A stretch of 64,000 bases of DNA, from assembly GCA_023409735.1 (NCBI GenBank), contig JAEYRB010000006.1:10027-74026 (forward strand). Direction: 5' to 3'. Positions 3,641 through 27,470 of the stretch are shown here, piece by piece. Origin of the DNA: Bacillota bacterium. GTDB taxonomy: Bacteria > Bacillota > Clostridia > Acetivibrionales > DTU013. Position 1 is the first letter of the stretch, and every line of letters begins with the position of its first letter. A program made the translations under genes and the position numbers. The notes under the pieces are model-generated. The model was not told the origin of the DNA, searched no databases, and saw only the letters and a list, made by a program, of their open reading frames with translations.

Positions 3641-3912
3641 GTGTAACTTTAGGGCGGATGGTCATATCTCGTGCTGGTAGAGATGCCGGAAAGAGCTTTG
3701 TTGTAGTCAATGTTGTTGACAAACAGTTTGTGGAGATAGCTGATGGTGATCTACGCAGGCTTGAGAAACCTAAAAAGAAAAAAATTAAGCATTTAAATAT
3801 AACTGATATTACAGCGGAAGAGATAGCGCTTAAATTCAGTAATTGCAGTAAGGTCACTAACGCTGATATAAGGAAGGCTCTGGCAAACCTGAAGATGCAG
3901 CAAAACATATAA
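3637..3912 (+). CDS. KOW-domain RNA-binding protein commonly found between map and infA in Firmicutes
   Basis: 91 aa, TTG start after GAGGTGAG. The GRMVISRAGRDAGKSFVVV motif is KOW-like, and the synteny fits. Confidence 0.7.
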   Translation: MSVTLGRMVISRAGRDAGKSFVVVNVVDKQFVEIADGDLRRLEKPKKKKIKHLNITDITAEEIALKFSNCSKVTNADIRKALANLKMQQNI

Positions 3913-3951
3913 ATAGTAATAGGAAATTGGCTAACAAGGAGGTTTTGAGTT

Positions 3952-4170
3952 TTGTCAAAGGAAGATGTAATTGAGGTCGAAGGTAAAATCGTAGAAGCAT
4001 TGCCAAATGCAATGTTTCAAGTAGAGTTGGAAAATGGGCATAAAGTACTAGCTCATATTTCCGGCAAGCTCAGAATGAATTTTATAAGAATATTACCTGG
4101 TGATAAAGTGACATTGGAACTGTCACCATATGATTTAACACGCGGAAGAATAACTTGGAGAGCGAAATAA
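3952..4170 (+). CDS. infA: translation initiation factor IF-1
   Basis: 72 aa, [51 protein letters not shown] is canonical IF-1. TTG start after GGAGG. Confidence 0.95.
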
Positions 4171-4173
4171 TAA

Positions 4174-4302
<129 letters not shown>

Positions 4303-4659
4303 TTTAATTGGACGATTGATAATTGAGAATTTATTAATAGTCTTGTTTTGATAACAAGAATGTGATATAATTCTAGCTTGGTTTTGATTATTTTGGATTA
4401 AGTGGTCAATTATCAATTGTCCTACTTTGCATTGAATTGACGATTCTGGTGCGGCTGCATGCGCGGTAACTCCAAGCATGATCCAGAAGTTAATTATATA
4501 TTTGTACGTTCCAGTAGGTATTAGGGAACGAATTGTGATTTTTGTGCATTTATCCATATAATTTTAGTAAATTATTTCGGAAATAATACACAAAAACGGG
4601 AAATGTTGAAGCATTAAGACATTTGATGGTAAGGATTTAATTTGGAGGTGTTTAACAAG

Positions 4660-7921: not shown

Positions 7922-8797
7922 TTGTATAGCAATGAATTAATATCAGTAAATAATGTCAGCTATGTTTACAGGGCACATAGTGAAGAGAACACTGATGTAC
8001 AGGCATTAAGTGATGTAAGCATTACAATAAGCGAAGGAGAGTTTCTGGCGGTGCTAGGAAGGAACGGCTCAGGAAAATCAACTCTTGCTAAACTATTTAA
8101 TGCATTGATCCTGCCGACAAGCGGTACAGTCATAGTCAATAGTATTAATACAATGAATGAAGAGATGCTTTGGGATATACGAAGTATGACGGGAATGGTT
8201 TTTCAGAATCCGGACAATCAGATAGTTGGTACAGTTGTGGAAGAAGATGTGGCATTCGGGCCGGAAAACTTAGGCGTACCTCCCGAGGAAATCAGAAAGC
8301 GTGTGGATGAGGCTCTTGATATAATCGGTCTTTCGGAAATGAAGAAGCATGCTCCGCACCTTCTGTCCGGCGGTCAGAAGCAAAGAGTTGCCATTGCGGG
8401 TATACTTGCTATGAAGCCTAAGTGTATTGTTCTTGATGAAGCTACCGCTATGCTAGACCCAGTGGGAAGAAGAGAAGTAATGAACATCCTAAAAAAGCTC
8501 AATACGGAAGAAGGTATTACAATAATTCATATAACACATCACATGGATGAGGCCGCGCAAGCTGATAAGGTGATGGTTATTGACTCCGGTGAGTGCATTA
8601 TGTATGGAGTACCCAGAGAGGTATTCAGAAATGTGGAGGATATGAAGAAAATAGGACTTGATGTACCTCAGGTTACAGAGCTTTTATATGAGCTTAATAA
8701 AGCCGGATTTAAACTTCCAATGGATATACTGACCGTTGAGGAAGCAAAGGAGTGTATTTCTAAAGCTTTAAGAGAAGCAAAAAATGGAAGATATTAG
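7922..8797 (+). CDS. ecfA1: energy-coupling factor (ECF) transporter ATPase component A1
   Basis: Walker [10 protein letters not shown], signature LSGGQKQR, Walker [10 protein letters not shown]. Lies right after rplQ as in Firmicutes ecfA-ecfA-ecfT clusters. Confidence 0.85.
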
Positions 8798-8798
8798 G

Positions 8799-9395
8799 CT
8801 ATAGGCGTAAAGACCTGTAAACTCGTATACCACCACTTTTTTCCACATCTTCAACGTTACTAAAACGCTCTTTCATTATGTCCTTCAATGTAGAGCCACC
8901 CTTGTTATGAAATGCGACCAGCCATAACGCTCCATTTAGGCTCAGATGATCATATGCCTGATCAATAAGCATTGTAAGCAGCTTCTTACCTGCCGCTAGC
9001 GGTGGGTTTGTTACAATGTCATTGAACATTATTCCATCAAATGAAGAATATAAATCACTTTTAACAGCCTTTACATTAAGACGGTTTTTTGAAGCATTTA
9101 GCATAGTGTATTCAATTGCTCTTTCATTTATGTCTGACATGCATAATGCTTGATTTTGGTATATGGCCTTAATAAACAGTCCTATAGCGCCGTAACCACA
9201 ACCCAGATCCAGAACTGAGCGGCCCTGCGGATAAAAGGTTTTTATCAAAAGCTCTGAAGCCTTATCTACTCTATTTTCAAAAGAAAAAACGCCACTTACT
9301 GAGGTTAGTGTAAGCTCTTGATTCTTTATAACCTGTGTAAAGGTCCTTTCTTTTATCTCTGAGGTCGGATTCTCCGTATAATAATGCTCAGTCAT
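8799..9395 (-). CDS. class I SAM-dependent methyltransferase, small-domain RsmC/RsmD-like
   Basis: SAM-binding LDLGCGYGAIG and catalytic-like VTNPPL motifs. The ATG at 9395 lies 6 nt after AGGAA. Confidence 0.7.
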   Translation of the reverse strand: MTEHYYTENPTSEIKERTFTQVIKNQELTLTSVSGVFSFENRVDKASELLIKTFYPQGRSVLDLGCGYGAIGLFIKAIYQNQALCMSDINERAIEYTMLNASKNRLNVKAVKSDLYSSFDGIMFNDIVTNPPLAAGKKLLTMLIDQAYDHLSLNGALWLVAFHNKGGSTLKDIMKERFSNVEDVEKSGGIRVYRSLRL

Positions 9396-9603: not shown

Positions 9604-11079
9604 ATGTCAGATAATCAGAATTACTATGAAAACACTAATAACACAGATATAAGCAATAATACGGAAAACGCCAATTGCATCAATAATAACGATAATAGCA
9701 ATATTGTAAACAACAGAAGTGCTATCAATAACAGTAATAATATTAATAGCAACAATAGCAACGACCAATGTTATTATAGTAATTACGATGAAAATCAGAG
9801 CTTAAGTTATGTAGACAGAAAAGTTAATAATGGCAATGGTAATCAAAGCTTTAATTTTGTAAGCAGCAGTGCTAACTTTAGGAATGAGGCTAAACAACAC
9901 AAGAGAAAAAGCAGAGAAAAGAAACCCAGACAGAATATTTTCCAGCTTGTACTTATTGCAGTTGTAAGCTCAATGATTGGGGGCGGTTCAGTATTTGCAG
10001 CGATGATGATGATACCTTCTGCAACAGACAGTATAGCATCAATAGCTCAAGACAGTGGCCTTAAGACTACAGAGGTCAAAAAGGTTACGATAAATGAGTC
10101 CACCAGCTCTCCTGCGGAAGCAATAGCAGAAAAGGTCAGTCCATCGGTTGTAGGAATCGTAGCAACAGTTGGTCAGCAGCAGAACAGCTTTTTCTTTTCA
10201 TCCGAAGCATCGGCAAGCGAAGGCTCAGGCATAATACTTAGTAAGGATGGATATATACTAACTAACAACCATGTGGTTGAAGGAGCATTAGTATCCGGTA
10301 CGAATAATTTAAGTAACGGCTCAAAAATCGAGGTAGTTCTTCCTGACGATAGTAATACCACGTATCCGGCAACATTGATAGGCAGAGACTCTGAGAGCGA
10401 TCTGGCAGTCTTGAAAATCAACGCTAATAATCTCCAGGCAGCTGAGATAGGCGACTCGAGTAATCTGAAAATAGGAGAGCTTGCTGTAGCAATTGGAAAT
10501 CCTGGCGGACTGCAGTATCAAAACTCAGTTACAACAGGTATTATAAGTGGACTTAACAGAACTCTGACCATATCTGATGGTACCCAGATGACGCTGATTC
10601 AGACTGATGCAGCTATTAATCCAGGTAACAGTGGAGGACCGCTATGTAATTCAACAGGCGAGGTTATCGGCATTAATACTGTTAAGATTGCAGCATCAGG
10701 ATATGAAGGAATCGGATTTGCAATTCCAATTAATGATGCAAAGGCAATTGCGGACGATCTGATAGAGTTTAAGTATGTAAAAGGCAGACCTCTTCTGGGT
10801 GTTTCAATAGATAATAGATATACAGATGAGATGGCGCAGCGTTACAATATGCCCAAAGGACTTCTTGTAGGCAGCGTCACTGAGGGAGGCCCGGCAGAAA
10901 ACGCAGGAATAAAGATCGGTGATATAATAACAAAATTTGATGGAAAAGAAGTAACAACATTTGATGAGCTCAATAAGCTGAAGGATGCACATAAGCCTGG
11001 TGATACTGTGGAAATAGAAGTATACAGAGAAAAAGGGAGCGTTACACTTAAGGTTACACTTGGTGAACAGACAATATAG
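9604..11079 (+). CDS. HtrA/DegP-family serine protease (trypsin-like plus PDZ) with an Asn-rich N-terminal extension and a TM anchor
   Basis: Catalytic context TNNHV, DLAVLK, GNSGGPL and a C-terminal PDZ-like region (GDIITKFDGKEV). ATG at 9604 after AGGAG. Confidence 0.85.
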   Translation: MSDNQNYYENTNNTDISNNTENANCINNNDNSNIVNNRSAINNSNNINSNNSNDQCYYSNYDENQSLSYVDRKVNNGNGNQSFNFVSSSANFRNEAKQHKRKSREKKPRQNIFQLVLIAVVSSMIGGGSVFAAMMMIPSATDSIASIAQDSGLKTTEVKKVTINESTSSPAEAIAEKVSPSVVGIVATVGQQQNSFFFSSEASASEGSGIILSKDGYILTNNHVVEGALVSGTNNLSNGSKIEVVLPDDSNTTYPATLIGRDSESDLAVLKINANNLQAAEIGDSSNLKIGELAVAIGNPGGLQYQNSVTTGIISGLNRTLTISDGTQMTLIQTDAAINPGNSGGPLCNSTGEVIGINTVKIAASGYEGIGFAIPINDAKAIADDLIEFKYVKGRPLLGVSIDNRYTDEMAQRYNMPKGLLVGSVTEGGPAENAGIKIGDIITKFDGKEVTTFDELNKLKDAHKPGDTVEIEVYREKGSVTLKVTLGEQTI

Positions 11080-11267
11080 GAATTTGTTTAAGTAATAATT
11101 GAAGGAAGAATTGTTTTTGAAAGCATAGTAGACATAAAGTACAAGCTTCTGAAGTAAAGCAACAGGTGGAAGAATGCAGAAGCACAAATAGATTTATTTA
11201 GAGTGCATAGAGAAGATGCATATAGTAAAAAGTCTCTTAAGTAAAGCAACACAAGGTTAAGAGAGAA

Positions 11268-11387
11268 GTAATACAAGAGGTAATACAAGAAGTAATACAA
11301 GAAGTAATACAAGAGATAATACAAGAGATAATACAAGAAGTAACACAAGAAGTAATACAAGAGATAACACAAGAAGTAACATAAGAA
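11268..11387. repeat. 10 contiguous copies of a 12-nt unit (consensus GTAATACAAGAA)
   Basis: Units read directly: gtaatacaagag, gtaatacaagaa, gtaatacaagaa, gtaatacaagag, ataatacaagag, ataatacaagaa, gtaacacaagaa, gtaatacaagag, ataacacaagaa, gtaacataagaa. Confidence 0.9.
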
Positions 11388-11427
11388 GCTCCTACAATAA
11401 ATATTTAACAGTAGGGGCTTCTTTCTG
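11385..11427 (+). terminator. candidate rho-independent terminator downstream of the protease gene and the repeat array
   Basis: GAAGCTCCTAC (11385-11395) pairs with GTAGGGGCTTC (11411-11421) with one G-U pair, followed by TTTCTG. Confidence 0.5.
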
Positions 11428-11450
11428 TAAAGGTACGATTGATAATGTAA

Positions 11451-11498
11451 ATCAATAGTTATAAATCAATAGTTATAAATCAATAGTAATAAATCAAG
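11451..11498. repeat. about 3.4 copies of a 14-nt unit (ATCAATAGTTATAA)
   Basis: atcaatagttataa, atcaatagttataa, atcaatagtaataa, atcaag, read directly. Confidence 0.8.
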
Positions 11499-11645
11499 AA
11501 GGCTCTTGGCAGGCACATAATTTACTTTCAAGCATCAAGCGGGTATATCTCGGGGCTTGTTGCAATGCTGCAGAGGTGTTAAAATGTTTCTGAAGTGAAT
11601 TAAATTATGTAAACCAGTAAATTATAATGAAAGGAAAGTGGTTAT

Positions 11646-12725
11646 ATGAGCTTGCCAAAGACAATGAAGGCTTTAGTTGCGTATGGTGCTAGCAAATATT
11701 GTTATGAACCGGAATATCCTGTTCCTGAGTGTGGTAAGGATGATATTCTAATTAAAACTGAGGGATGTGGAATTTGTGCGGGTGATCTGAAGTGTCAGCA
11801 TGGCTCTGCGATGTTCTGGGGAGATGAAGTTCAGCCTGTATGGGTAAAGCCACCTTTTATTCCCGGACATGAATTTGTCGGCAAAATAGTTTATATTGGG
11901 GAAAATATTAAAGGGTATTGTGTTGATGACCGAATTGTTGTTGACCAAATTGCACCATGTGGTGAATGTCGCTTTTGTAAGGATGGACATTATTGGATGT
12001 GCCAGCCTCACAAAATGTATGGGTTCTTCGAGGAATTCTGCGGTGGTATGGCTGAATATGTTCGTATCCCGGTTAAGAATTCCGTTATACACAAGGTATC
12101 AAAAGATATGGCTCTTGAAGATGCGTTGTTAATTGAACCATACGCTTGTGCCAAGCATTGTGTGGATAGAGCACAAATTTCCTGTGAAGATATAGTTGTA
12201 CTTTCAGGTGCGGGAACACTGGGACTTGGAATGGTAACATATGCAAGGCTGCGAAACCCAAAGCTTCTTATTGTCCTGGATATGTTGGATGGACGATTGG
12301 AAAAGGCAAAGGAGTTCGGGGCTGATCTGGTTTGGAACCCGTCAAAGATGAATGTAGCGGAAGAAATATTAAAGCTGACGGACGGTTATGGATGTGATAT
12401 CTATATTGAGGCGACAGGGCATCCATCTTCAGTAACACAAGGCATGCAGATGATACGAAAGCTTGGAAGATTTGTGGAATTTTCTGTATTCGGAGCTCCT
12501 ACGACACTGGATTGGTCAATTATCGGAGACAGAAAAGAGCTTGATGTACTTGGTTCTCACTTAAGTCCATATTGCTTCCCGTTTGTTATTGAAAATATAG
12601 GTAATGGCAAATTAAAAACAAATGGTGTTGTAAGTAAATTATTTGAACTGAAAGATTGGGAAAAAGCATTTGATTATGCATCCGGTAAATATGGAGACTT
12701 TAAAGTTGGGTTCAAGTTTAAATAA
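11646..12725 (+). CDS. zinc-dependent medium-chain dehydrogenase, polyol/threonine dehydrogenase-like
   Basis: 359 aa with catalytic-Zn context GICAGDL...GHEFVG, structural-Zn cysteines CGECRFCKDGHYWMC, and Rossmann GAGTLGLG. Confidence 0.8.
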   Translation: MSLPKTMKALVAYGASKYCYEPEYPVPECGKDDILIKTEGCGICAGDLKCQHGSAMFWGDEVQPVWVKPPFIPGHEFVGKIVYIGENIKGYCVDDRIVVDQIAPCGECRFCKDGHYWMCQPHKMYGFFEEFCGGMAEYVRIPVKNSVIHKVSKDMALEDALLIEPYACAKHCVDRAQISCEDIVVLSGAGTLGLGMVTYARLRNPKLLIVLDMLDGRLEKAKEFGADLVWNPSKMNVAEEILKLTDGYGCDIYIEATGHPSSVTQGMQMIRKLGRFVEFSVFGAPTTLDWSIIGDRKELDVLGSHLSPYCFPFVIENIGNGKLKTNGVVSKLFELKDWEKAFDYASGKYGDFKVGFKFK

Positions 12726-13085
12726 GAAGCATTAATAATGTAGTGTCCTGTTAACCATATAGATGATTATACTGATATGAATATTAAGTTTGAAGATTAC
12801 AAGGTCTTAAGTATTTAAATATCTGCCCATATTATTCGGATAGAGGTGATGCAGTTAATGGGATCATTGCCGGGTAATATGGGTATTGTTAATTAAATTT
12901 AGTTTGATTTACTTATTCGAGCATGACAGACAGCGTTTAGAATTTAACAAAAAAGGTTTTAACTATTTTATTCGTCACTATAATATGATAATATTCGTAT
13001 AGTTATTATTTAACGGGTATGGATATTCTAACATAACAGAATAATATGAGACAAAGGGCAACATGTTCAAAAGCAGGGAGATTAA

Positions 13086-17260: not shown

Positions 17261-17695
17261 ATGAAAACTTTCATGGCAAAAGCCGAAGAAGTTAACAGAA
17301 AATGGTACGTAGTCGATGCCGACGGTAAGCCGTTGGGAAGGCTTGCAAGCGAGGTCGCCAAGATTTTAAGAGGCAAAAATAAGCCAACTTATACACCTCA
17401 TGTAGATACAGGTGACCATGTAATAGTTATAAACGCTGAGAAGGTAGTACTGACCGGAAATAAGCTTGATCAGAAGATTTATAGACATTATTCCGGCTGG
17501 ATCGGCGGAATGAAGGAAATTAAGTACAGGCAGATGATGGAAAAGCAGCCTGAAAAGGTAGTTGAGTTAGCCATCAAGGGAATGCTCCCGCATAACAGTC
17601 TGGGGCGTCAAATGTTCAGAAAGCTCAATGTATACAAGGGAGCTGAACACGAACACCAGGCACAGAAACCTGAAATTTTGGAAATCAATGTTTAA
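17261..17695 (+). CDS. rplM: 50S ribosomal protein L13
   Basis: 144 aa with [47 protein letters not shown], canonical L13. Confidence 0.95.
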
Positions 17696-17717: not shown

Positions 17718-18113
17718 ATGGCTACAAAGATTCAATATTATGGAACTGGAAGAAGGAAAAAGTCTGTTGCAAGAGTCAGGCTTGTTCCAGGAGATGGAAA
17801 GGTAGTAATAAACGATAGAAGCCTTGATGATTATTTCGGACTTGAAACTCTTAAGACTATAGTAAAGCAGCCTTTAGTGCTGACTGATACTTCAGCTAAG
17901 TTTGATGTATTGTGCAAGGTTGCCGGTGGTGGATTAACAGGTCAGGCCGGTGCAATAAGGCATGGTATTTCAAGAGCATTGCTTAAGGCAGATGAGGAGT
18001 TCAGACTTACACTTAAGAAGGCCGGATTCCTTACAAGAGACCCGAGAATGAAGGAAAGAAAGAAATACGGTCTCAAGAAAGCAAGAAGAGCACCACAGTT
18101 CTCAAAGAGATAA
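17718..18113 (+). CDS. rpsI: 30S ribosomal protein S9
   Basis: 131 aa with [14 protein letters not shown] and the C-terminus [12 protein letters not shown]. Confidence 0.95.
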
Positions 18114-18147
18114 TCAAGAAGAAAATTGATTTTTTTGAAGAATACCG

Positions 18148-18176
18148 AAAAAGCCCCGATTTTTGGGGCTTTTTCT
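18148..18176 (+). terminator. rho-independent terminator downstream of rpsI, inside the left end of the element
   Basis: AGCCCC (18152-18157) pairs with GGGGCT (18165-18170), flanked by an A-run and a T-run. Confidence 0.7.
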
Positions 18177-18246
18177 TATGTCTTAAAAGTTTGAAAAATT
18201 GCGAGTTTAGTAACTAAAACAAAGTCATAGCCACACCATAGCCGTA

Positions 18247-18417
18247 TTATAGCCACAACTGAGAATGTTCCATAATAAGATATTCATCTTTATATTGTTC
18301 TTCTACTTCGTCAATATCATTTGCTTCAACAATAAAAGTTGTTTCTTCGTCATCAAAATCTGCATACCATAACCCATTTTCATCATATTTAACCTTTGAT
18401 ACAATAAACGTCATCAT
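18247..18417 (-). CDS. small acidic hypothetical protein (56 aa) of the element
   Basis: Uninterrupted ORF MMTFIVSKVKYDENGLWYADFDDEETTFIVEANDIDEVEEQYKDEYLIMEHSQLWL, abutting the upstream ORF on the same strand. Below the track cutoff, and no family was recognised. Confidence 0.35.
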   Translation of the reverse strand: MMTFIVSKVKYDENGLWYADFDDEETTFIVEANDIDEVEEQYKDEYLIMEHSQLWL

Positions 18418-18418
18418 A

Positions 18419-18649
18419 TTACCCCTTTCTATCTAATTCATTCATAAGTAAATCATTGTGTCTATGCAACATATCAACCTTGTTTTGTAATGTGCGTTCT
18501 TTAGCTGTTAGTGGGTCTCTGTTTTCTTCGGCAGGGGCTTCAGCCTTGCCAGTTAGTTCAGCCCCAGTAACTAATAAAGTGTTGATGTAATTAAGTTTTT
18601 GTTCGTCTGTAAGTTCTATCTTTGGGTACATTGTTGCAACTGGATTCAT
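18419..18649 (-). CDS. hypothetical protein of the element; start uncertain
   Basis: ORF 18419..18718 overlaps the rep 3-prime end, so an internal ATG at 18649 or 18631 is more plausible. The C-terminal part looks coiled-coil. No clear RBS. Confidence 0.3.
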   Translation of the reverse strand: MNPVATMYPKIELTDEQKLNYINTLLVTGAELTGKAEAPAEENRDPLTAKERTLQNKVDMLHRHNDLLMNELDRKG

Positions 18650-19670
18650 ATTTGTATTCTTCGGAATAATCGCCTTTTTTGTCATCAAAGAGGCTTGCAT
18701 AGAAATGGTCTTGTTCAAAACGCAAATGCAATTTACATCTTCGCTTTAACTGAACGATTGGTTCTTTCTGTTCCTTAAATACACCATTGAAAAATTCATC
18801 AATCTTTAATACTGATGTTACTATGATTAGTTTGCATTCTAAAACCTTGTTTTTGTATCTGCTTTTTACAGTAGAAGCAGTATTATTATCCAACATCTTT
18901 AATAAATCACTTAATCCCATGCAACTTGGTCTTAAATCATCAAGAATAATACAATCTTGTCCTGCATATCCGTCAAGTACATCATTAGAGCCACTTGATA
19001 CGAATACACTATAACCTTTATCTTCGCACATCATTTGTGCATATGTACTTTTGCCAGTTCCACTTTTTCCAGTAATATAAACGCATTCCATATTTCTTTT
19101 TGCCCCCTTTATAATATCGGTTCTGTATTTAAATGCATTGTCGATAGATTTCTTATATCTGTCGTATTCGTCAATAGTTATGTGTTTGTGATAGTTAAAT
19201 TCACGAATAACACCACTTACAATGTCATTTATAATTTGGATTTTTCTTGTTTCACTATTAGATTTGTTGATTGCTTTGGTCTTTTCTACTTTCCAGTTGT
19301 AATTACTGGTTACTTCATCTTCTGTGTATTGGTATTTAGTTGGTGCGTTTTCGTGAGTAAGATATTTTAACATATCAACCCATTTTCCTTTTACCTTATT
19401 TATAAAGTTTTCTTTGATACCTAACCAGTTAGCAATATACTTGGTATCTATACCATATTCCAGTCTAATTGCAATATGGTAATGAGCCTTTTTTGGTGTT
19501 CCTGCTTTATGGTCGGGATTTTTAGTTTCATCAGCTTCATTATAAGTATCTTTGTCGTGCAAGATATAAGCATAATCTTTGAACGGTTTTTGATTGTCTA
19601 ATACCTTTACAATTTCTTCAATGTTGATGTGTTCTACATCTGATACGATTTCACATAATCTAACTTGCAT
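18591..19670 (-). CDS. rolling-circle replication initiator: HUH (pMV158 RepB-like) N-domain fused to a P-loop NTPase
   Basis: ILHDKD and KKAHYHIAIRL (HUH motif), then Walker A GKSGTGKST and Walker B IILDDL. The ATG at 19670 lies 6 nt after GGAGGT. Confidence 0.8.
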   Translation of the reverse strand: MQVRLCEIVSDVEHINIEEIVKVLDNQKPFKDYAYILHDKDTYNEADETKNPDHKAGTPKKAHYHIAIRLEYGIDTKYIANWLGIKENFINKVKGKWVDMLKYLTHENAPTKYQYTEDEVTSNYNWKVEKTKAINKSNSETRKIQIINDIVSGVIREFNYHKHITIDEYDRYKKSIDNAFKYRTDIIKGAKRNMECVYITGKSGTGKSTYAQMMCEDKGYSVFVSSGSNDVLDGYAGQDCIILDDLRPSCMGLSDLLKMLDNNTASTVKSRYKNKVLECKLIIVTSVLKIDEFFNGVFKEQKEPIVQLKRRCKLHLRFEQDHFYASLFDDKKGDYSEEYKYESSCNNVPKDRTYRRTKT

Positions 19671-19955
19671 ATACATACCTCCTATAATTTTACTACATAC
19701 GACAGTAAAACTACGCCGAACAGACAAGCCCACTGTTCGGCTATTTTTCAAGCTTTTCAATGGTTTTACTACGTACTACATTGTTGTTTCATAAGTAGCA
19801 TGCAAGATAGAAATCGGTTATGTTTTTTCTGTATAGCCTTTTCATTTAAAAAATTTCCAAAATGAAGATTTTTTAAAAAACATCGGAATTTTATCGAAAA
19901 TTGATTTTATGGGGTGAGGTCAAAAATCACACTTTTTATAAGGAGGTGGAATGAA

Positions 19956-20132
19956 ATGGGAAAATTAAAAGAATGTGATGATGATACTTTTTACAATGCG
20001 TCCATTGATTTTTTAATTGAAGCATTGGCACAAAATGGCATTGAAGAATGTCATAAGCAAATTTCAGTAGATACCGATGATGATTATGCGAAAGTAGAAC
20101 CATACGAAAGAAAGACAACAGAGGAAAGATAA
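19956..20132 (+). CDS. small hypothetical protein (58 aa) upstream of the relaxase
   Basis: ATG preceded by AAGGAGGTGG. Product MGKLKECDDDTFYNASIDFLIEALAQNGIEECHKQ... with no recognised family. Confidence 0.35.
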   Translation: MGKLKECDDDTFYNASIDFLIEALAQNGIEECHKQISVDTDDDYAKVEPYERKTTEER

Positions 20133-20235
20133 GAAGAGCCCCACCTTGCTTGTCAAGGTATAGGGGCTTTACACCTTGGAGCAAGATTTAGAAGCATAGG
20201 CGGTCTTGCTACTGGTGGTTGAGAGGAGGGATTTT

Positions 20236-20988
20236 ATGGCGAAGTTCAGTTTTCATTGTCAATGCTATAAGGCAGGGCAACTTGGGGGAATTGACAAACA
20301 CAACAGACGATTAAACAAGAATTATATCAGCAATCCAGATATAAACTTGGAACGAAGCAAAGAAAATCGTATTTATATTGCACCGAAGCAATCACTTTAT
20401 CAAGATTGTAAGGACATTATAAATAAAAAGGTATTTGCTAATGGTGGCAGGGTTACAAAGGCTTCAAACTGGATATGTGAATGTATATTTTCATATCCTG
20501 AGGAATTACCGATAGAAAGGCTTGATGAATATAACGATTTAGTTATTAAGTATATGGGTGCAAGGATTGGGGCTGATAATATAGTAATGGCTTGTTGTCA
20601 TGTGCAAGATGAGGCAGGTGTTCCCCACCTACATTTAGATATAATACCGATAGACAATGGGAAATTATCGGGTAAGACTTTGATAACAAGGGATTTTATT
20701 ACATCAATCCATAGACTAATGCCTATGGTGTTACAAAATCATGGCTTTAATGTAGAAAGCTACGAAGAAACTGAAGCCCGTAGAACTGGAGGTTTAAGTG
20801 CTAAGGAATACAAGAAGAAAATGGAAGAGGAAAGCAGGGAACTAAACAAGAAACTTGATGAAATGGTTAAGGAATATAATAACTTGGCTGATAAGTATAA
20901 CAAGTTAGTTGAAGATAAGGAAGCATTGGAGCGCAAGAACAGAGATAAGGCTTATGAAGTCATAAAGCAGCAGGAACGAAACCGATAA
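20236..20988 (+). CDS. MobV-family (Mob_Pre) relaxase
   Basis: HVQDEAGVPHLHLDIIP matches the MobV HxDE...PHxH motif. There is an N-terminal HNRR region and a C-terminal coiled coil. ATG at 20236 after GAGGAGGG. Confidence 0.8.
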   Translation: MAKFSFHCQCYKAGQLGGIDKHNRRLNKNYISNPDINLERSKENRIYIAPKQSLYQDCKDIINKKVFANGGRVTKASNWICECIFSYPEELPIERLDEYNDLVIKYMGARIGADNIVMACCHVQDEAGVPHLHLDIIPIDNGKLSGKTLITRDFITSIHRLMPMVLQNHGFNVESYEETEARRTGGLSAKEYKKKMEEESRELNKKLDEMVKEYNNLADKYNKLVEDKEALERKNRDKAYEVIKQQERNR

Positions 20989-21054
20989 AGTTCTTGCATA
21001 ATTTAGAGAATTTGATATAATTGGCACAATTAAATTGAACTTGTGGAGGAAGAT

Positions 21055-21597
21055 ATGATGAATGCTTTGGTAATGAATTGTAGTCCAGTTAGGAACGGAG
21101 CAACTACTGAAATAGTAAATATAATAACAGATTGTTTAAAAGAGAAGTATGAGGTTAATAGTGTTTGTATTGACGATTATAACTTTAACTTTTGTAAAGG
21201 ATGTCGTTCGTGTCATAATACTGCAAAATGCATTCAACATGATGATGTTGATAAGATAATTGAACAATATGAATATGCAGATGTGATAATATCGGTAGCA
21301 CCTTCTTATTGGGCAGATATTCCAGGACAATTTAAAGCATTCATTGATAGGTGTACACCTTGGTGTAATACCCATGAACCACATGCTACGATAAGCACTG
21401 GAAAGAAAGGTTATTCAATTGCATTAAGAACAGGTCCAAGTATGAAAGAATGTAATCGTATTATTGAGAGTATTGAGCATTTTTATGGGCATATGGAAAT
21501 TGAATGTTGTGATAGTATGGGCTTATGTTCGATAGAGTATAAAGAAGCAGTAGAACCAAGAAAGGCTGAAATTATTGAGTTCTGCAAAAAAATATAA
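21055..21597 (+). CDS. flavodoxin-like-fold, iron-sulfur-flavoprotein-like NAD(P)H-dependent reductase (element cargo)
   Basis: N-terminal MNCSPVRNGAT (flavodoxin-like fold) followed by the cysteine cluster CKGCRSCHNTAKC. Confidence 0.6.
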   Translation: MMNALVMNCSPVRNGATTEIVNIITDCLKEKYEVNSVCIDDYNFNFCKGCRSCHNTAKCIQHDDVDKIIEQYEYADVIISVAPSYWADIPGQFKAFIDRCTPWCNTHEPHATISTGKKGYSIALRTGPSMKECNRIIESIEHFYGHMEIECCDSMGLCSIEYKEAVEPRKAEIIEFCKKI

Positions 21598-21759
21598 GAT
21601 AGTTTTGATACTGGACATTGTGCCAGTATCTTTTTTAATCCCCAAAACACCGAAATATTTAGAAGAAATATTATATAAATCCCACTTTGCAAAGTGTGGC
21701 TACGGAGTTATAATATTTATATCAATTTACTTCTTATTATTCAGCGAAAAGAGGACATT

Positions 21760-22848
21760 ATGAAACTACCTAACGGATATGGAAGTGTTAGCAAGGTTAA
21801 TAGAAAGAACTTACGAAAGAAGTACATAGCAAGGATTACTACGGATATTGAAATTGATGAGCAGGGCAAGAAACATCAGCACAAAAAGACAATAGGCTAT
21901 TTTGAAACAAAGGAAGAAGCCTTAAATGCCTTGACAAATTACAATATGAATAAAGACGAAGTAAACATTTTATTTATGAACATCACTTTTACTGATTTAT
22001 GGGAAGAATGGCAGGAAAGCGAAAAGGTTCAAGCATTAAAGCCAGATACCATAAAGGGTTATGAATTCTCTTATAAATTGATTACCGATAAAATCAAAAA
22101 AATGAAGTTTATAGACATTAAGTTTAATGACTTGCAGAATATGATAAATGAATTATTGGGCAACAGAAAAGGTTATCAATCGGTAAGAAAAGTTAAGAAT
22201 TGCATTAAGCAGTTGTATGATTATGCTATTAAATGTGATATTGTCAGTAAGAATTATGGCGAGTTGCTTGATATAGGTAAGATCCCACGCAAAGGGCAAG
22301 CGTTAATATTTACTGATGAACAGATAGAACGCTTATGGAAGTTGTATTACGAACAGAACAAAGATACAAGGCTGACTATCGAGATTATGCTTATGTTGAT
22401 GTATAATGGTTGCCGAATAAGTGAGTTCTTATGTCTTAAAATAGAAGATATGAATTTGAAAGACCGGTATTTCAATGTTACCGATAGCAAGACAGACGCA
22501 GGTATAAGACAAGTTCCTATTAGTGACAAGGTTATCAATATCTATGAAAGCATTGTAAACGAAAGAGAAAAGGGTTATTTCCTTATTAACCCGAATAATA
22601 AGAGAAAGTTTACATATGCTAATTTTAGAGATAGTTACTGGGATAGAATGATTGACTTGCTTGGTTGGGATAAGAAGTTGACACCACATAATTGCAGAAA
22701 GACTTGCATTTCAAAATTGACAAAAGCAGGTGTAAGACCTACATACATTAGATTGATTGTCGGTCATGAGGGTGCGTTGGATTTGACGGAAAAGACATAC
22801 ACCTATGTAGACTTTGAAGAACTGTTAAAAGCAATCAATGAAATATAG
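21760..22848 (+). CDS. int: tyrosine-type site-specific integrase
   Basis: C-terminal catalytic context (RISEF..., HNCRKT, LIVGHEG, YTY) and an N-terminal arm-binding-like region (LPNGYGSVSKV). ATG at 21760. Confidence 0.85.
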   Translation: MKLPNGYGSVSKVNRKNLRKKYIARITTDIEIDEQGKKHQHKKTIGYFETKEEALNALTNYNMNKDEVNILFMNITFTDLWEEWQESEKVQALKPDTIKGYEFSYKLITDKIKKMKFIDIKFNDLQNMINELLGNRKGYQSVRKVKNCIKQLYDYAIKCDIVSKNYGELLDIGKIPRKGQALIFTDEQIERLWKLYYEQNKDTRLTIEIMLMLMYNGCRISEFLCLKIEDMNLKDRYFNVTDSKTDAGIRQVPISDKVINIYESIVNEREKGYFLINPNNKRKFTYANFRDSYWDRMIDLLGWDKKLTPHNCRKTCISKLTKAGVRPTYIRLIVGHEGALDLTEKTYTYVDFEELLKAINEI

Positions 22849-22936
22849 CCACATTGTAGCCACACTTGGACTGAAATACAAGTAAAATAAACAAATCACA
22901 ATACGCCAAGAGATAAATTGTATATTATATACGTCG

Positions 22937-22969
22937 AAAAGCTGCAGACATTACGTTTGCAGCTTTTTT
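22937..22969 (+). terminator. rho-independent terminator following the second att-like repeat
   Basis: AAAAGCTGCA (22937-22946) pairs with TGCAGCTTTT (22958-22967), then a T-run. Confidence 0.65.
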
Positions 22970-23265
22970 GCGACCAGTTTTGTGTATGGCAGCATTGACG
23001 AGGGGACGGGGCTGGTGTCAACGGTGGCCAGTGATGGGTTATTGTACAATATGGTTCTATGTCAATAATTAAGGCTGGTACTCTAGTAAAAAAATAGCTA
23101 TATTTATCTGACAAATACCTCTTGAAATTCTAACTCTGAAGGCATTTCTCTTATTTATCTTGATTTTGTTGTTCACTCCTCAGTTTGGTCTGTCAGCGAA
23201 GGCGGATAAAATCAAGATCGACGGTTTCGTTTTCATAAAAGCGTATGGGCGTGATGGGGCCATGT

Positions 23266-23362
23266 CGGACTTTTTGTAACCGAAACTATGTTTTATGTCG
23301 AAAAAATCATGTTTCATGCAGTGGACGGTTCCTAAGAGAGATTTTTGATATATTGAACATGA
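23266..23362 (+). promoter_or_regulatory. conserved upstream element, copy 1 (shared with 27324-27420)
   Basis: 97 nt with 12 mismatches against copy 2 by hand alignment. It ends about 55 nt before the ATG of the downstream gene. Confidence 0.5.
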
Positions 23363-23416
23363 GGACAAAGGATCTTATTTTGGCCAAACAACAATGTTTA
23401 AAGGAGGAACAATATT

Positions 23417-26400
23417 ATGAAGAAACGATTTGCGAGCATACTTCTCATCGTATGCATGGTATTGACGCTGTTACCGGCTACGGCAAGTGCAGGAGAGAGC
23501 TTCAATAACTTTGTGGACCGGATGCGTAGCGAGTACGACGTGATTATCTCTTGTGATCGCAGTATCCCACTCACAGCCAAGGAGCAGGGCTATATTGAAA
23601 CAGCTCTCAGTGCATGGGGCAAGGAGTATGTCCGTACGATCTCAGGAGCCTTTGCGTCAAGCAAGTATTTCGGAAGTACGGAAACACTCAGTTCAACACG
23701 CATGAAGATTATTATTAGCAATCTAAGCGGGGACGCAGAGGCCGGTTTATATGGTAAAGCCTCAGGTGAAAAGCTCTACTTATACGGCGATATTTGGGAT
23801 GACGTGACCTTCCATCACGAGTTCGCCCATATGGTGAAGCACGCTTGTGAAAGCGCCAGTAGCGTTAACTGTTACGGTAAGTTTTCTGAACTCATCAAGG
23901 CGGCAAACAGTGACGCCATCAGTGTAAGCGGCGATTATAAATCTGCCTGGAAGCCGGGAGTCGATGAGTCATTCTATGCTTGGAGCTATGGCAAATATTC
24001 TCCCGATGAGGACATTGCCACCATTATGCCCAATACCACAGACTCAAAATGGGCAGAGAAGGTGAAAAATGGCGAAATGCCGGTCATCACAAAAAAACTT
24101 CAGGCCTTTCGCAATTACTATGAGAAGTATCTGACAGGTGGAAGCATACCATGTCCCTTGATAGACAATATTCTGGGGCCTTCTACCAATCATTCCACTG
24201 AGGCTATGGGTACATACTTCAATCTCATTACCACCAAAATGAATGCTGGAGAAACCTTCAAGCTCGAGATAATTGGCAGCTACCCTATCACAGCCACCGA
24301 GCGCTTTGAGATTACAAGCATAAGGTCAATGGACCCCAAAATTATCAAGGTAGACCAAAACACTGGTATTATAACCGCCTTATCTGAGGGATCTACGTTA
24401 GTGAGTTATGGCTTTAAGACAGCAACTCAGACCAGCAACATAGGTTTCACTATTACAGTAACAGGGTCCGTCCTACCCACGGATGTTCGATTCGACTTCC
24501 CCACAACCTTAAAAGTTGGTGATAAATTCAAACCCACCATCACTCTTCTTCCTGAGGGCTCAATCGCCCCAGCAGAGCCACGGTGGTCCTACTCGACCAA
24601 CCAAGTAATCACCTTTAAGGATGGCGAGTTGATCGCCCAGAGGCCTGGCAAATCCACCCTCACCTGTTTGCTGGACCATATGGATCTGAAAGTCCCGGTA
24701 GAGATTACCGTGGAGGCTGCCACGGTTACCGGCATAACCTTGAATGAGACCTCAGTTACAAAGACAGCCGGCAGCACAATACAGCTAAAGCCAACTCTGG
24801 AACCTGCCGGTTCTAATGGAGCAGTGACCTATTCCTCCTCTGACGAGAGTGTGGCCACTGTCAATACCAATGGTCTTGTCACCACCAAAAAGGCGGGTAC
24901 CGCCACCATCACGGCCAAGGTGGGAACTCTTACTGCCACTTGCACGGTTACTGTTACACCGGCTGCCGTTGCCGGCATCAGTCTAGCCCCTGCTCAAGCG
25001 GGAATCAAGGTGGGACATACCGTCCAGTTAGAGCATACCTTCATACCTGCCGGGGCTGTGGGCACAGTGAACTATACTACCTCTGACGCGTCTGTGGCTG
25101 CTGTTAGCGGCACAGGCCTGGTCACCGGCAAGAAGACGGGTACGGCTACAATCATTGTCAAGTCGGGTAACTTTTTTGCCACCAGTAAAATTACCGTATC
25201 CAACACCGATCCCACCGGCATAACCCTGGGCAAAGCGACCGCCACGGTGGAGGCGGGTAAGTCGATTCAGCTTACCGCCGCCCTGACCCCAGCTGGGGCC
25301 GGGGGTACAGTGACCTATTCCTCCTCTGACACGGGTGTGGCTACCGTGAGCGCCGCCGGGCTTGTCACCGGCAAGAAGGCGGGTACCGCCACCATAACAG
25401 CCAAGGTGGGAACTTTGTCCACCACCTGTAAAATTACTGTAACCAGCATCGCGCCTACCGGCATCACCATGAGCAGAGCCAATGCTACGGTGGAGGCGGG
25501 TAAGACGATTCAGCTTACCGCCGCCCTAACCCCAGCTGGGGCCGGGGGCACAGTGACCTATTCCTCATCTGATACGGGGGTAGCTACTGTGAGCGCCGCC
25601 GGGCTTGTCACCGGCAAGAAGGCTGGTACCACCACCATCACAGCCAAGGTGGGAGCTTTGTCGACCACCTGTAAAATTACTGTAACAAGCATTGCGCCCA
25701 CTGGCATAACCCTGGGCAAAACGACCGCCACGTTGGAGGCGGGTAAGACAATTCAGCTTACCGCCGCCCTAACCCCAGTTGGGGCCGGGGGCACAGTGAC
25801 CTATTCCTCCTCTGACACGGGGGTGGCTACCGTGAGCGCCGCCGGGCTTGTCACCGGCAAGAAGGCTGGTACCACTACCATCACAGCCAAGGTGGGAGCT
25901 TTATCGACCACCTGTAAAATTACTGTAACCAGCATCGCGCCCACCGGCATAACACTGGGCAAAGCGACCGCCACGGTGGAGGCGGGTAAGTCCATTCAGC
26001 TTACCGCTGCACTAACCCCAGCTGGGGCCGGGGGCACAGTGACCTATTCCTCATCTGATACGGGGGTAGCTACTGTGAGCGCCGCCGGGCTTGTCACTGG
26101 CAAGAAGGCTGGTACCACCACCATCACAGCCAAGGTGGGAACTTTGTCTACTACCTGTAAAATTACTGTAACGGCGGCACTCGAGACAACGATTGCGGGT
26201 GGCTGGTACAATCTTCGTGTTATGAACAACTACATCAATATCAGTGCCGCAGGGAACGCGGAGCTGCGCAGCAATACGAAAAACCAGGCCTTTTATGTAG
26301 ATAATAAGGGAGGCATGCAAGTAACCCTGAAAACGGTGGATGGAAAATATCTGGGAGTGTCCGGCACTGTGAAGGATGGCGTACAGTTAAAGGAAGTAGA

Positions 26401-27151
26401 CAGCCCGTATATTTGGAACATCTACTCCGAAAAAAAGACCGATATCTTTAGCCTGCGCCCGCCTGACAAAGTCAAAATGGTCGTCAATGCCTCGGGACAG
26501 AATAGCGAGGACGGAACGCAGATCATTTTGTGGACGCATGAGAACCTGGATGCTCCTAACCACGCCGAAATTAGGTTTATTACCACGCAAGCGCCCGGAG
26601 CAGGGACTGCAAAGCATCCCTTTAACGATGTTCCAAAGGGCACGTACTATGAAAATCCGGTCATTTGGGCTCTGAACAACGGCGTCACCAGCGGAACCTC
26701 CGCCACGAACTTCGCACCAGGTGAAACCTGCACAAGAGGACAGGTCGTAACTTTCCTGTGGAGAGCCAAGGGCAGTCCCGAGCCTGCTTCGACCGTTAAC
26801 CCTTTCTCCGATGTTAAAGCTTCCGATTATTTTTACAAGGCGGTGCTATGGGCGGTTGAGAAGGGCATCACTAGCGGCACAAGCGCCACTACATTTAGCC
26901 CGAACTCTACCTGCACCAGCGGTCAAGTGGTGACGTTCCTATGGCGCTCAAACGGTAGTCCCAAAGCCACCGGCACAAGTAGCCTTGCGGCACAATACAG
27001 CGGTCAATACTACTCCGACGCCGTGGCTTGGGTGGACAGCACAGGACTGCTAGCAGGCACAGGTACAGCCTTTGCGCCCAACAGCAATTCTCCACGCGCC
27101 GACATTGTCACTTATCTCTATCGCAACGCGGGAAGCCCGGCGATTCAATAG
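23417..27151 (+). CDS. secreted multidomain cell-surface protein: HExxH domain, about 8 Ig-like (Big_2-type) repeats, beta-trefoil-like module, three SLH-like repeats
   Basis: Signal peptide MKKRFASILLIVCMVLTLLPATASA and the motif HHEFAHM. Repeated units of about 81 aa (GITL..TVTYSSSD..VATV..GLVTGKKAGTATITAK). Three C-terminal F.DV...Y....W......TSGTSATTF.P...CTRGQVVTFLWR repeats. Confidence 0.85.
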   Translation: MKKRFASILLIVCMVLTLLPATASAGESFNNFVDRMRSEYDVIISCDRSIPLTAKEQGYIETALSAWGKEYVRTISGAFASSKYFGSTETLSSTRMKIIISNLSGDAEAGLYGKASGEKLYLYGDIWDDVTFHHEFAHMVKHACESASSVNCYGKFSELIKAANSDAISVSGDYKSAWKPGVDESFYAWSYGKYSPDEDIATIMPNTTDSKWAEKVKNGEMPVITKKLQAFRNYYEKYLTGGSIPCPLIDNILGPSTNHSTEAMGTYFNLITTKMNAGETFKLEIIGSYPITATERFEITSIRSMDPKIIKVDQNTGIITALSEGSTLVSYGFKTATQTSNIGFTITVTGSVLPTDVRFDFPTTLKVGDKFKPTITLLPEGSIAPAEPRWSYSTNQVITFKDGELIAQRPGKSTLTCLLDHMDLKVPVEITVEAATVTGITLNETSVTKTAGSTIQLKPTLEPAGSNGAVTYSSSDESVATVNTNGLVTTKKAGTATITAKVGTLTATCTVTVTPAAVAGISLAPAQAGIKVGHTVQLEHTFIPAGAVGTVNYTTSDASVAAVSGTGLVTGKKTGTATIIVKSGNFFATSKITVSNTDPTGITLGKATATVEAGKSIQLTAALTPAGAGGTVTYSSSDTGVATVSAAGLVTGKKAGTATITAKVGTLSTTCKITVTSIAPTGITMSRANATVEAGKTIQLTAALTPAGAGGTVTYSSSDTGVATVSAAGLVTGKKAGTTTITAKVGALSTTCKITVTSIAPTGITLGKTTATLEAGKTIQLTAALTPVGAGGTVTYSSSDTGVATVSAAGLVTGKKAGTTTITAKVGALSTTCKITVTSIAPTGITLGKATATVEAGKSIQLTAALTPAGAGGTVTYSSSDTGVATVSAAGLVTGKKAGTTTITAKVGTLSTTCKITVTAALETTIAGGWYNLRVMNNYINISAAGNAELRSNTKNQAFYVDNKGGMQVTLKTVDGKYLGVSGTVKDGVQLKEVDSPYIWNIYSEKKTDIFSLRPPDKVKMVVNASGQNSEDGTQIILWTHENLDAPNHAEIRFITTQAPGAGTAKHPFNDVPKGTYYENPVIWALNNGVTSGTSATNFAPGETCTRGQVVTFLWRAKGSPEPASTVNPFSDVKASDYFYKAVLWAVEKGITSGTSATTFSPNSTCTSGQVVTFLWRSNGSPKATGTSSLAAQYSGQYYSDAVAWVDSTGLLAGTGTAFAPNSNSPRADIVTYLYRNAGSPAIQ
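25201..26172 (+). repeat. four near-identical in-frame 243-bp tandem repeats (Big_2-type units)
   Basis: The repeat-unit junction motif AAAATTACTGTAAC recurs at 25431, 25674, 25917 and 26160 (period 243). Encoded units differ at only a few residues. Confidence 0.9.
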
Positions 27152-27230
27152 GAAATGTTGAAACAGTATTATGTATAGTGTGTTTTGGATTGTGTGATTC
27201 CGTACCTCGGTACTCAAAGAGATAAACGTC

Positions 27231-27263
27231 AAAAAACCGCAAGCATTGTGCTTGCGGTTTTTT
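27231..27263 (+). terminator. rho-independent terminator after the surface protein gene and the third att-like repeat
   Basis: CCGCAAG (27237-27243) pairs with CTTGCGG (27251-27257), flanked by an A-run and TTTTTT. Confidence 0.7.
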
Positions 27264-27323
27264 ATGGGCTCAGTGTCAATAATCGGGGCGGGCCTCTAGC
27301 AAAATAAATAATAATATTTTTTC

Positions 27324-27420
27324 CCGACTTTTTATAACCGGAACCATATTTTATGTCGAAAAAATCATGTTACATACAGTGGATGGTTTTTGCGAGAGAT
27401 TTTTGATATATTGAACATGA
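27324..27420 (+). promoter_or_regulatory. conserved upstream element, copy 2
   Basis: Homologous to 23266-23362. It ends 50 nt before the ATG at 27471. Confidence 0.5.
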
Positions 27421-27470
27421 AATATGTGTTTTCATCGATTAACCAGCAGAATCTGTATAGGAGGACTGAT

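Follow-up and report, generated by a model that had tools for sequence, protein, structure and literature searches.

The stretch analysed here, 64,000 nucleotides of contig JAEYRB010000006.1 (assembly GCA_023409735.1, a Bacillota bacterium of the Clostridia) and called the window throughout, holds 9.1 kb of DNA between rpsI, the gene of ribosomal protein S9, and a gene for a secreted protein (gene 2). We think that these 9.1 kb are probably a two-part stack of inserted DNA at a hot spot of tyrosine integrases. The first part, 18114-22916, is an integrative mobilizable element (IME) lying between two copies of the rpsI 3' end, of which copy 1 is its attachment site attL and copy 2 its attR. The second part, 22917-27225, consists of a single gene for a large surface protein (gene 1) and closes with a third copy. 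On balance, we take it to be an integrase-less island bounded by att sites, similar to a cis-mobilizable element (CIME), that was stacked with the IME by site-specific accretion.

Repeats of the rpsI 3' end

The initial annotation was built on repeats of the rpsI end, and these are present as described. The last 13 nt of the gene, CTCAAAGAGATAA (18101-18113), are found again exactly at 27213-27225, and the last 9 nt, AAGAGATAA, at 22908-22916. The alignment of 18091-18113 with 27203-27225 gives 19/23 identical positions, as had been counted by hand, with a perfect 13-nt core, and that of 18094-18113 with 22897-22916 gives 16/20 instead of the 15/20 first reported. The proposed S9-like C-termini are also there when the copies are read in the rpsI frame: copy 2 ends in SQYAKR-stop and copy 3 in PRYSKR-stop, the latter as the end of an open reading frame (ORF) at 27028-27225. 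Copy 3 begins 51 nt past the stop codon of gene 1.

The suspicion that the 13-mer might be a common word had to be answered on two scales. Within the window it occurs 2 times against 0.00 expected from 100 dinucleotide-preserving shuffles; on the other hand, it is the most frequent rpsI end in low-GC Clostridia (26/84 rpsI loci), so that the target is widely shared and not peculiar to the present genome. As a background for the 19/23 figure, the best match was at least 19/23 in 42 of 3,000 random 900-nt windows of the loci fetched for comparison (designated below by L numbers), which are rich in rpsI ends and att sites and whose high scorers were not inspected singly. Three extra matches to AAGAGATAA in the window are due to a 12-nt tandem repeat (CAAGAAGTAATA and CAAGAGATAATA variants) at about 11290-11390, in the gap past an HtrA-like protease gene.

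An integrative mobilizable element at rpsI

The claim that an IME with its own integrase occupies the rpsI 3' end is supported by its gene content, by integrase relatives that also lie at rpsI, by the break directly after the TAA and by the attP of a relative. A search at E <= 1e-10 returned 307 homologs of the integrase. On long contigs, relatives of 50-95% identity stand behind rpsI in the same orientation (L084, L088, L094, L095, L097), and more distant ones are convergent with rpsI, in an inverted architecture (L101, L105, L106 and ten viral-collection loci). Altogether, relatives were compared beside rpsI at eight other genome or metagenome loci and at the ten viral-collection loci; at every one of them attL and attR share CAAAGAGATAA, with host sequence from the base after the TAA. 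In the window the S9 reading frame is complete and the IME begins at the base past the TAA.

The att core can be defined as the CAAGAGATAA-type 11-mer, CAAAGAGATAA, because its length follows from the attP junction of a relative, where 11 nt overlap. The element integrated in L084 recurs in circularly permuted form as contig L087, whose two halves overlap by the 11-nt core; this overlap is the attP junction, circular or tandem, of a relative whose integrase is 76% identical. Integrases that are 95-100% identical are found with four unrelated right flanks (the window, L093, L094, L104); of these, the three flanks outside the window belong to IMEs whose integrases are 95-98% identical and whose last base is likewise that of the TAA. 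Moreover, the IME is 91-95% identical to the element of a Lachnospiraceae metagenome-assembled genome (MAG; L094), where the rplM-rpsI region is just 75% identical. Judging by these identities, one 4.8-kb IME is common to different bacterial families.

The mechanism that we propose is as follows. The substrates of the integrase would be the end of rpsI in the chromosome and an attP that mimics its last ~20 nt; the strands would be exchanged inside CAAAGAGATAA, which would leave S9 intact, and the IME would give rpsI a new terminator. The element presumably excises as a circle, which Rep would then maintain or replicate. The MobV relaxase would nick the origin of transfer (oriT), probably the hairpin at 20137-20168, for transfer via the mating pore of a helper element, to which the near-identical IME of the Lachnospiraceae MAG lends indirect support. 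We infer from the sequence the activity of the present IME copy, as well as the arrival route of 22917-27225 and the joint excision considered below.

Table 1. Features of the rpsI region, in coordinates of the window
Feature	Coordinates	Strand	Evidence or remark
rplM	17261-17695		Just 5' of rpsI; Pfam Ribosomal_L13 on the identical L001 gene
rpsI (ribosomal protein S9, 131 aa)	17718-18113	+	Integration target; ORF list, Pfam Ribosomal_S9 on the identical L001 gene
Copy 1, attL	18091-18113	+	Genuine rpsI 3' end CACCACAGTTCTCAAAGAGATAA, core CAAAGAGATAA
IME left arm (P'), TCAAGAAGAAAATTGATTTTTTT...	18114-18180	+	Replacement rpsI terminator; conserved beside rpsI in L084, L088, L094, L095, L097
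Three TAGCC(A/G)-type repeats (TAGCCACA, TAGCCGTA, TAGCCACA)	18227-18259	+	Candidate arm-type integrase sites near attL
Two small ORFs, 56 aa (18247-18417) and 70 aa (18419-18631)	18247-18631	-	Called as genes in L001
Rep, 359 aa as called	18591-19670	-	Fusion of Rep_OBD (HUH-type origin-binding domain) and SF3-type helicase
Candidate oriT hairpin, just 5' of the relaxase gene	20137-20168	+	DNA fold of 20130-20205: -13 kcal/mol, z -2.8
MobV-family relaxase (Mob_Pre)	20236-20988	+	Pfam PF01076 1.2e-22
FMN reductase / flavodoxin-like cargo, 180 aa	21055-21597	+	Pfam PF03358, PF02525
Tyrosine integrase, 362 aa	21760-22848	+	rpsI-targeting clade; PF00589 5.9e-19, PF14659
Two TAGCCACA repeats from the integrase stop codon on	22846-22864	+	Candidate arm-type sites near attR
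Copy 2, attR of the IME, AATCACAATACGCCAAGAGATAA	22894-22916	+	Also internal att if the stack arose by accretion
Left end of the integrase-less segment	22917-23416	+	14-nt stretch ATTGTATATTATAT, terminator, promoter/leader core 23268-23362
Gene 1, secreted surface protein, 1244 aa	23417-27151	+	HExxH N-terminal region, six Big_2, ricin-like, SLH; Pfam
Copy 3, TACCTCGGTACTCAAAGAGATAA	27203-27225	+	Read as outer attR of the stack
Terminator and promoter/leader of gene 2	27226-27470	+	Leader core 27326-27420; chromosomal B' side if the stack arose by accretion
Gene 2, WG-repeat / ricin-like secreted protein, 935 aa	27471-30278	+	Pfam PF14903; marks the right edge of the insertion

The IME has 7 ORFs in 4.8 kb (Table 1), one of them of 58 aa, and the ORF list, Pfam and NCBIfam reveal no coupling or pore proteins and no conjugation genes. 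For the 56-aa and 70-aa ORFs there was no Pfam or NCBIfam match. Rep matches PF01719 (1.1e-7) and PF00910 (4.9e-11); at the nucleotide level, stretches of 370-880 nt are ~67-71% identical to Rep genes carried by phytoplasma plasmids (onion yellows, aster yellows, periwinkle), the sole plasmid matches of this gene in PLSDB. The relaxase also matches the NCBIfam MobV model at 1.3e-20, under the equivalog cutoff, and the placement of the oriT hairpin relative to mob agrees with that in MobV elements (PMC5090054). The slot between mob and int, which holds the flavin mononucleotide (FMN) reductase gene, gives no alignment to the otherwise 91-95% identical IME of L094. The integrase has invariant catalytic-domain residues across 33 homologs, and its stop codon lies 45 nt ahead of copy 2. 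The TAGCCACA repeats near attR are conserved in L084, L088, L093, L094, L095 and L104. The repeats inside both IME ends may bind the integrase; they look like arm-type sites because each integrase subfamily has its own repeat pair past the int stop codon. The GC content at third codon positions (GC3) of the IME genes is 0.22-0.38.

Several observations can be added on the element and its family. Contigs of the same species, 99.8-99.9% identical, have a ~38-kb prophage inside the IME relaxase gene, at about 20717-20719 of the window, with genes for a 479-aa large serine recombinase, YqaJ, RecT and SSB (L001 13055-20396, L082 20233-20891, L146 1-3646); the window is the prophage-free form, and in these other contigs a phage is thus nested within the rpsI-borne IME. 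Just outside the attR of the L088 IME (8603-9335) lies an FMN reductase gene whose product is 79% identical to the window IME cargo; it follows a stretch like the left arm of the L088 IME itself (ATTGATTTTTTCAA, same offset), and the arrangement may represent a decayed second element in an accretion. The best annotated phage matches of the integrase are 31-41% identical, and four viral-collection loci (L241 11629, L253 4137, L256 3471, L260 545) have integrases at 37-43% identity. These small "viral" contigs and prophages contain rpsI-end mimics of up to 17 identical nt (e.g., TAGTTCTCAAAGAGATAA) or adjoin rpsI fragments; many IMG/VR records and GenBank "Bacteriophage sp." entries, 4-13 kb in length, may be rpsI-targeting IMEs.

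The empty site

Gene 2 appears from gene order to be the ancestral neighbour of rpsI. In Ruminiclostridium herbifermentans (CP061336) its ortholog, 79% identical, lies 378 nt past rpsI, and the upstream order of L17, ABC, CbiQ, TruA, L13 and S9 genes is the same; contig L108 is likewise arranged. Compared with that genome, therefore, all 9.1 kb are inserted DNA. In the more distant L114, gene 2 is 2.4 kb past rpsI. The GC3 of gene 2 in the window, 0.38, is host-like. The closest genome found with a TruA query (S9 93%) ends 350 nt past rpsI. An empty site of the kind foreseen by the initial annotation thus exists, although in another species and with its boundary placed by gene order.

The integrase-less segment 22917-27225

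Gene 1 is the sole gene of this segment, in which the ORF list and Pfam give neither a recombination nor a transfer module. Its GC3 is 0.58 (0.52-0.61 in subregions) against 0.21-0.47 in 32 host genes and the low values of the IME genes, which indicates that the gene body is foreign. The N-terminal 409 aa have no relative in representative genomes or in the protein index, and a look-up of the exact protein found no entry. Between 24803 and 26170 the gene contains five to six tandem repeats of 243 nt, 72-81% identical to the reference copy and encoding one Big_2 domain each; they make assembly difficult, and the gene varies slightly between samples.

What suggests that the right end of the segment is an att site is copy 3. 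It sits at the junction of foreign and native DNA, and gene 1 has no terminator of its own before it. Its likeness to rpsI stops after ~24 nt, a behaviour also seen in the arms on the element side of genuine att sites, and its arm matches at 8/12, equal to L098. Copies 2 and 3 both end in AAGAGATAA, and copy 3 has 13 nt in common with attL. Among 71 exact 11-mer cores in the 3.3 Mb of fetched loci, the rpsI-like copies outside rpsI are all integrase-adjacent att sites, barring copy 3 and the L115 site described below. The tandem layout of attL, internal att and attR that had been proposed is thus secure for copies 1 and 2, as ends of the IME, and for copy 3 the att assignment is the best reading, not a proven one. 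Because copy 3 shares 13 nt with attL, the IME integrase could in principle excise 18114-27225 as one unit, acting in trans on copies 1 and 3.

Most likely, 22917-27225 is what remains of, or what resulted from, another site-specific insertion at the rpsI end, earlier or later than that of the IME. An island already in place may have taken up the IME at its attL, or a resident IME may have taken up the island at its attR. The CIME-like character first suggested for this segment draws on the empty site, the foreign gene, the perfect core and similar cassettes elsewhere; the absence of mobility remnants and the homology of the flanks of copies 2 and 3 speak against it.

A candidate remnant of a MobV oriT before copy 3 was discarded: TAGTGTGTT (27176-27184) matches the pMV158 nick site, and such matches number 2 against 0.77 expected, with a weak fold.

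Terminators and leaders

The initial annotation had a different rho-independent terminator after each copy. The three hairpins are indeed strong and each is followed by a U run: 18147-18175 (-19.6 kcal/mol, z -5.1), 22936-22968 (-23.2 kcal/mol, z -7.9) and 27231-27263 (-22.4 kcal/mol, z -6.2). Those of copies 2 and 3, however, are not different but homologous, with 28/40 identical positions in the same register, whereas 198 other terminator-like segments reach at most 21/40. The homology of the two right flanks runs on collinearly through a 47-nt block, whose score was reached by 0/1000 shuffles, and a 95-nt leader that is 88% identical and includes perfect stretches of 23 and 27 nt; it ceases only at the codons of the signal peptide. 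The signal peptides of genes 1 and 2 are 59% identical and their ricin-like domains 36% over 70 aa.

The post-rpsI 100 nt were compared in L151, L154, L161, L170, L171, L114 (7010-7110), L159, L163 and L165. A block of ~90 nt, TTACACACGAGTTTGTTTACAATTACAAAGTTTGC...CCGTCAGGGGG...GGCGGTTTTTT, directly past rpsI is conserved in several relatives, and others have a GGGAACGGTATACCACCGTTCC hairpin or a CCTCAGAAAC...GTTTCTGGGG hairpin. The two homologous terminators of the window represent a fourth type, absent from the loci compared.

The leader contains the motif TTCATGTCAAAAAAATCATGTTTCATGCA ... TGATAGATTGAA, found at 23283-23362 before gene 1 and at 27341-27420 before gene 2. It also occurs at L107 9877, L109 2294, L110 1404, L113 9886/12850, L114 9325/14873 and L115 9880; it is common to the gene-2 orthologs of L107, L109, L110 and L113-L115 and, in several species, also stands before nearby genes for secreted proteins. 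Rfam has no counterpart of the motif, which looks like the operator and promoter of a regulon. The leader 23-mer found no match in representative genomes, and the species of the window is therefore outside that collection. A permissive Rfam scan of 16-32 kb returned nothing known that explains the repeats or the leader; it gave a sub-threshold Phe_leader on the IME terminator alone.

Alternative origins of the stack

Several points weigh against accretion and should be stated together. The left 500 nt of 22917-27225, comprising terminator, 47-nt block, leader and signal peptide, show collinear homology to the 245 nt that follow copy 3, which is what a tandem duplication in place would most simply produce. 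The terminator type that copies 2 and 3 share is absent from the rpsI downstream regions of the relatives compared, so a foreign element with a host-type terminator needs an extra assumption. ORF list and family searches reveal no integrase, excisionase, relaxase or recognisable remnant in 22917-27225. Nor did remnant ORFs or family matches point to its derivation from an IME or an integrative and conjugative element (ICE) by deletion. At position -10, copy 2 has C and attL and its close relatives have A, which leaves just 9 nt of identity with attL. The sole empty site comes from a different species (S9 84% identical), and since the intergenic sequence has diverged, the right boundary is set by gene order and not to the base.

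Finally, junction k-mers in the fetched loci gave no circular junction, empty site or alternative position for the IME or for 22917-27225. The junctions expected are ...ACGCCAAGAGATAA followed by TCAAGAAGAAAATTG for an IME circle, ...GGTACTCAAAGAGATAA by TCAAGAAG for a composite circle and ...GGTACTCAAAGAGATAA by ATTGTATATT for a circle of the second segment; loss of the IME would leave rpsI ...TTCTCAAAGAGATAA followed by ATTGTATATT, and loss of both parts rpsI ...TTCTCAAAGAGATAA followed by ACGTCAAAAAACC. If the stack arose by accretion, strains lacking gene 1 should have rpsI joined to ACGTCAAAAAACCGC before gene 2. All the contigs of the same species, which is present in the samples ERZ27269263, ERZ28597459 and SRR13358427, share the arrangement of the window; exact-protein look-ups with S9, LysR, the integrase and the 56-aa ORF returned this arrangement throughout, with or without the prophage.

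The strongest competitor, which we still consider unlikely, is a local tandem duplication with its starting point ~24 nt into rpsI. It would have taken in terminator, leader and gene start; afterwards the body of one of the gene copies would have been swapped for gene 1, and the IME would have arrived later, at the true rpsI end. It would account directly for the collinear right flanks of copies 2 and 3, with their related terminators, block, leaders, signal peptides and ricin-like stretches, for a terminator type confined to the present genome and for the lack of any mobility-gene remnant. Nevertheless, its edge would have to coincide with the distance at which att sites end inside rpsI, and the 13-nt core would have to stay perfect while the neighbouring sequence is 70-83% identical. 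The GC3 of the gene 1 body, against that of gene 2, needs an extra event. A duplication of the full unit finds no support, because the 51 nt past gene 1 are unrelated to the sequence past gene 2; homology along the whole unit was not found either, the gene bodies sharing just the 70-aa ricin-like stretch. The likeness of the leaders is weak evidence for duplication, since a regulon-type promoter stands before other genes and in other species as well, and the region of the ribosome-binding site of gene 1 is nearer to the R. herbifermentans ortholog than to gene 2 of the window. Besides, significant homology between the right flanks of attL and attR is found at the bona fide IMEs L088 and L095 too (0/500 shuffles each).

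A single composite arrival of the 9.1 kb is a poorer candidate, and we give it little credence. Here the IME and the gene-1 segment would have been excised together between the outer sites in a donor and mobilised by the IME relaxase, copy 2 being a leftover. The longer core shared by the outer copies (13 nt, against 9 nt for copies 1 and 2) and the movement of the IME across families agree with this, and cis-mobilisation of accreted islands is described for ICESt-type elements in work cited in PMC5357655. Against it stand the GC3 contrast between the IME genes and gene 1, the close IMEs of L093, L094 and L104, which end at copy-2-type sites without such a segment, the native look of the segment's promoter and leader in this lineage, and the lack of any composite junction in the fetched loci.

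That copy 3 is a chance or convergent likeness with no shared history with rpsI or an att site can practically be dismissed: the region is AT-rich, and a related 18-mer, CGGTACTCAAAGAGATAA, which was tried and rejected as evidence that the left arm of copy 3 is a known element arm, does occur by chance in one phage coding sequence in seven viral contigs of one family, but the exact 13-mer, the 19/23 match over the rpsI end and the TAA in the same register to a terminator, all at a junction of foreign and native DNA, are far beyond such coincidences.

Integrase-less cassettes elsewhere

Other loci have a similar layout. In L016 (Lachnoanaerobaculum sp. ICM7, 10390-13050) a 2.6-kb cassette holds a 486-aa Schlafen AlbA_2 / HATPase_c_4 gene with a 33-nt imperfect repeat, and in L073 (a Clostridiaceae MAG, 3492-4502) a 1-kb cassette holds a PhD/ParE toxin-antitoxin pair; both are devoid of an integrase and are enclosed by the real rpsI end on one side and another rpsI-end copy on the other, each then with a terminator. 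In the metagenome contig L115 (91-1620), an SLH-protein gene stops 38 nt before CAGTTATCAAAGAGATAA and a terminator, with no adjacent integrase. This mimic has 18 nt in common, without a mismatch, with the arm on the element side in the L098/L099 integrase subfamily; a gene-2 homolog follows 8.4 kb downstream, and the fetched locus covers the right side only. As in the second segment of the window, the order is cargo gene or genes, rpsI-end mimic and terminator, without an integrase, and in L115 an SLH-protein gene likewise ends near the mimic (38 nt vs 51 nt). The cargo differs in the toxin-antitoxin and Schlafen/AlbA_2 cases, and none of the three is seen beside an intact IME. They are undescribed observations without a curated family. 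The rpsI-like 11-15-mers 5' of the gene-2 homologs in L111 and L113 were set aside as being within background.

A broader idea, which is attractive to us but rather improbable at present, is that the clostridial rpsI stop codon is an open site for collecting cassettes that lack an integrase and bring an rpsI-end mimic, their own terminator and their own promoter. The surface-protein cassette and those of L073, L016 and L115 would depend on integrases acting in trans, those of IMEs and phages specific for rpsI, for their insertion, stacking and movement, and the homology past the stop codon would belong to a longer att site. If this were true, such cassettes would be a widespread class of hitch-hiking units and not decayed elements.

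Comparison with known systems

The closest characterised analogue of the window IME is IMESag-rpsI of Streptococcus agalactiae, an element of 9.5 kb with 13 ORFs that forms circular intermediates (Lorenzo-Diaz et al. 2016, PMC5090054). Both elements are flanked by att sites at the rpsI 3' end and encode a tyrosine recombinase, a replication initiator and a MobV (Mob_Pre) relaxase, without a mating pore. The window IME is smaller, with 4.8 kb and 7 ORFs, and its Rep combines Rep_OBD with an SF3 helicase instead of Rep_trans/RepA_N; the Cro/CI regulator and the RelBE pair of IMESag-rpsI are both missing from it. IMESag-rpsI excises as a circle, whereas in the present family the circle is known from the relative L087 alone. 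The hosts are Streptococcus in one case and a Ruminiclostridium-like Clostridium in the other.

In streptococci, tandem IME-IME and ICE-IME accretions together with decayed elements occur at the 3' ends of rpsI, rpmG and rplL (Coluzzi et al. 2017, PMC5357655), and rpsI is targeted by several integrase families (Tyr_4, Tyr_5 and Tyr_7) with short or long direct repeats (PMC5357655). The Tyr_4, Tyr_5 and Tyr_7 elements and the window IME alike use the rpsI 3' end and leave the coding sequence intact; the accretions and the window have in common serial att copies at rpsI and an intact IME beside a partner without a recombination module. As tandem accretion at rpsI is already documented there, the stack of the window joins a known type. 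The phylogenetic group is different, and probably the integrase clade as well. Unlike the streptococcal partners, that of the window contains no recognisable element remnants, just a cargo gene with its own promoter and terminator, and outside the core its inner and outer sites have homologous flanks.

Deletions in ICEs gave rise to the CIMEs that occupy fda in Streptococcus thermophilus (ICESt1/ICESt3 family), and these are excised and co-transferred, according to the work cited in the streptococcal survey (Pavlovic et al. 2004; Bellanger et al. 2011, as cited in PMC5357655). Like 22917-27225, they are bounded by att-type repeats, have no integration or transfer genes and form a tandem with an element that encodes an integrase for which the outer sites could be substrates. 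Their target gene and recombinase family are others, and their derivation and excision have been shown, while 22917-27225 is known from its sequence.

The concepts of IME, accretion and CIME are already established and are unchanged by the stack described here. What is new is the host group, the integrase clade with its core, the Rep type and a partner made up of nothing but a cargo gene, which has a terminator of its own and a promoter of native type. In our opinion, the interest of the locus is threefold. The rpsI hot spot and its tandem accretions, so far mainly streptococcal, are extended to cellulolytic and gut Clostridia; the att core and exact boundaries are defined for a broad integrase clade that includes small IMEs and prophages; and a testable case is provided of a foreign cell-surface gene parked under a native type of promoter right behind a ribosomal operon.

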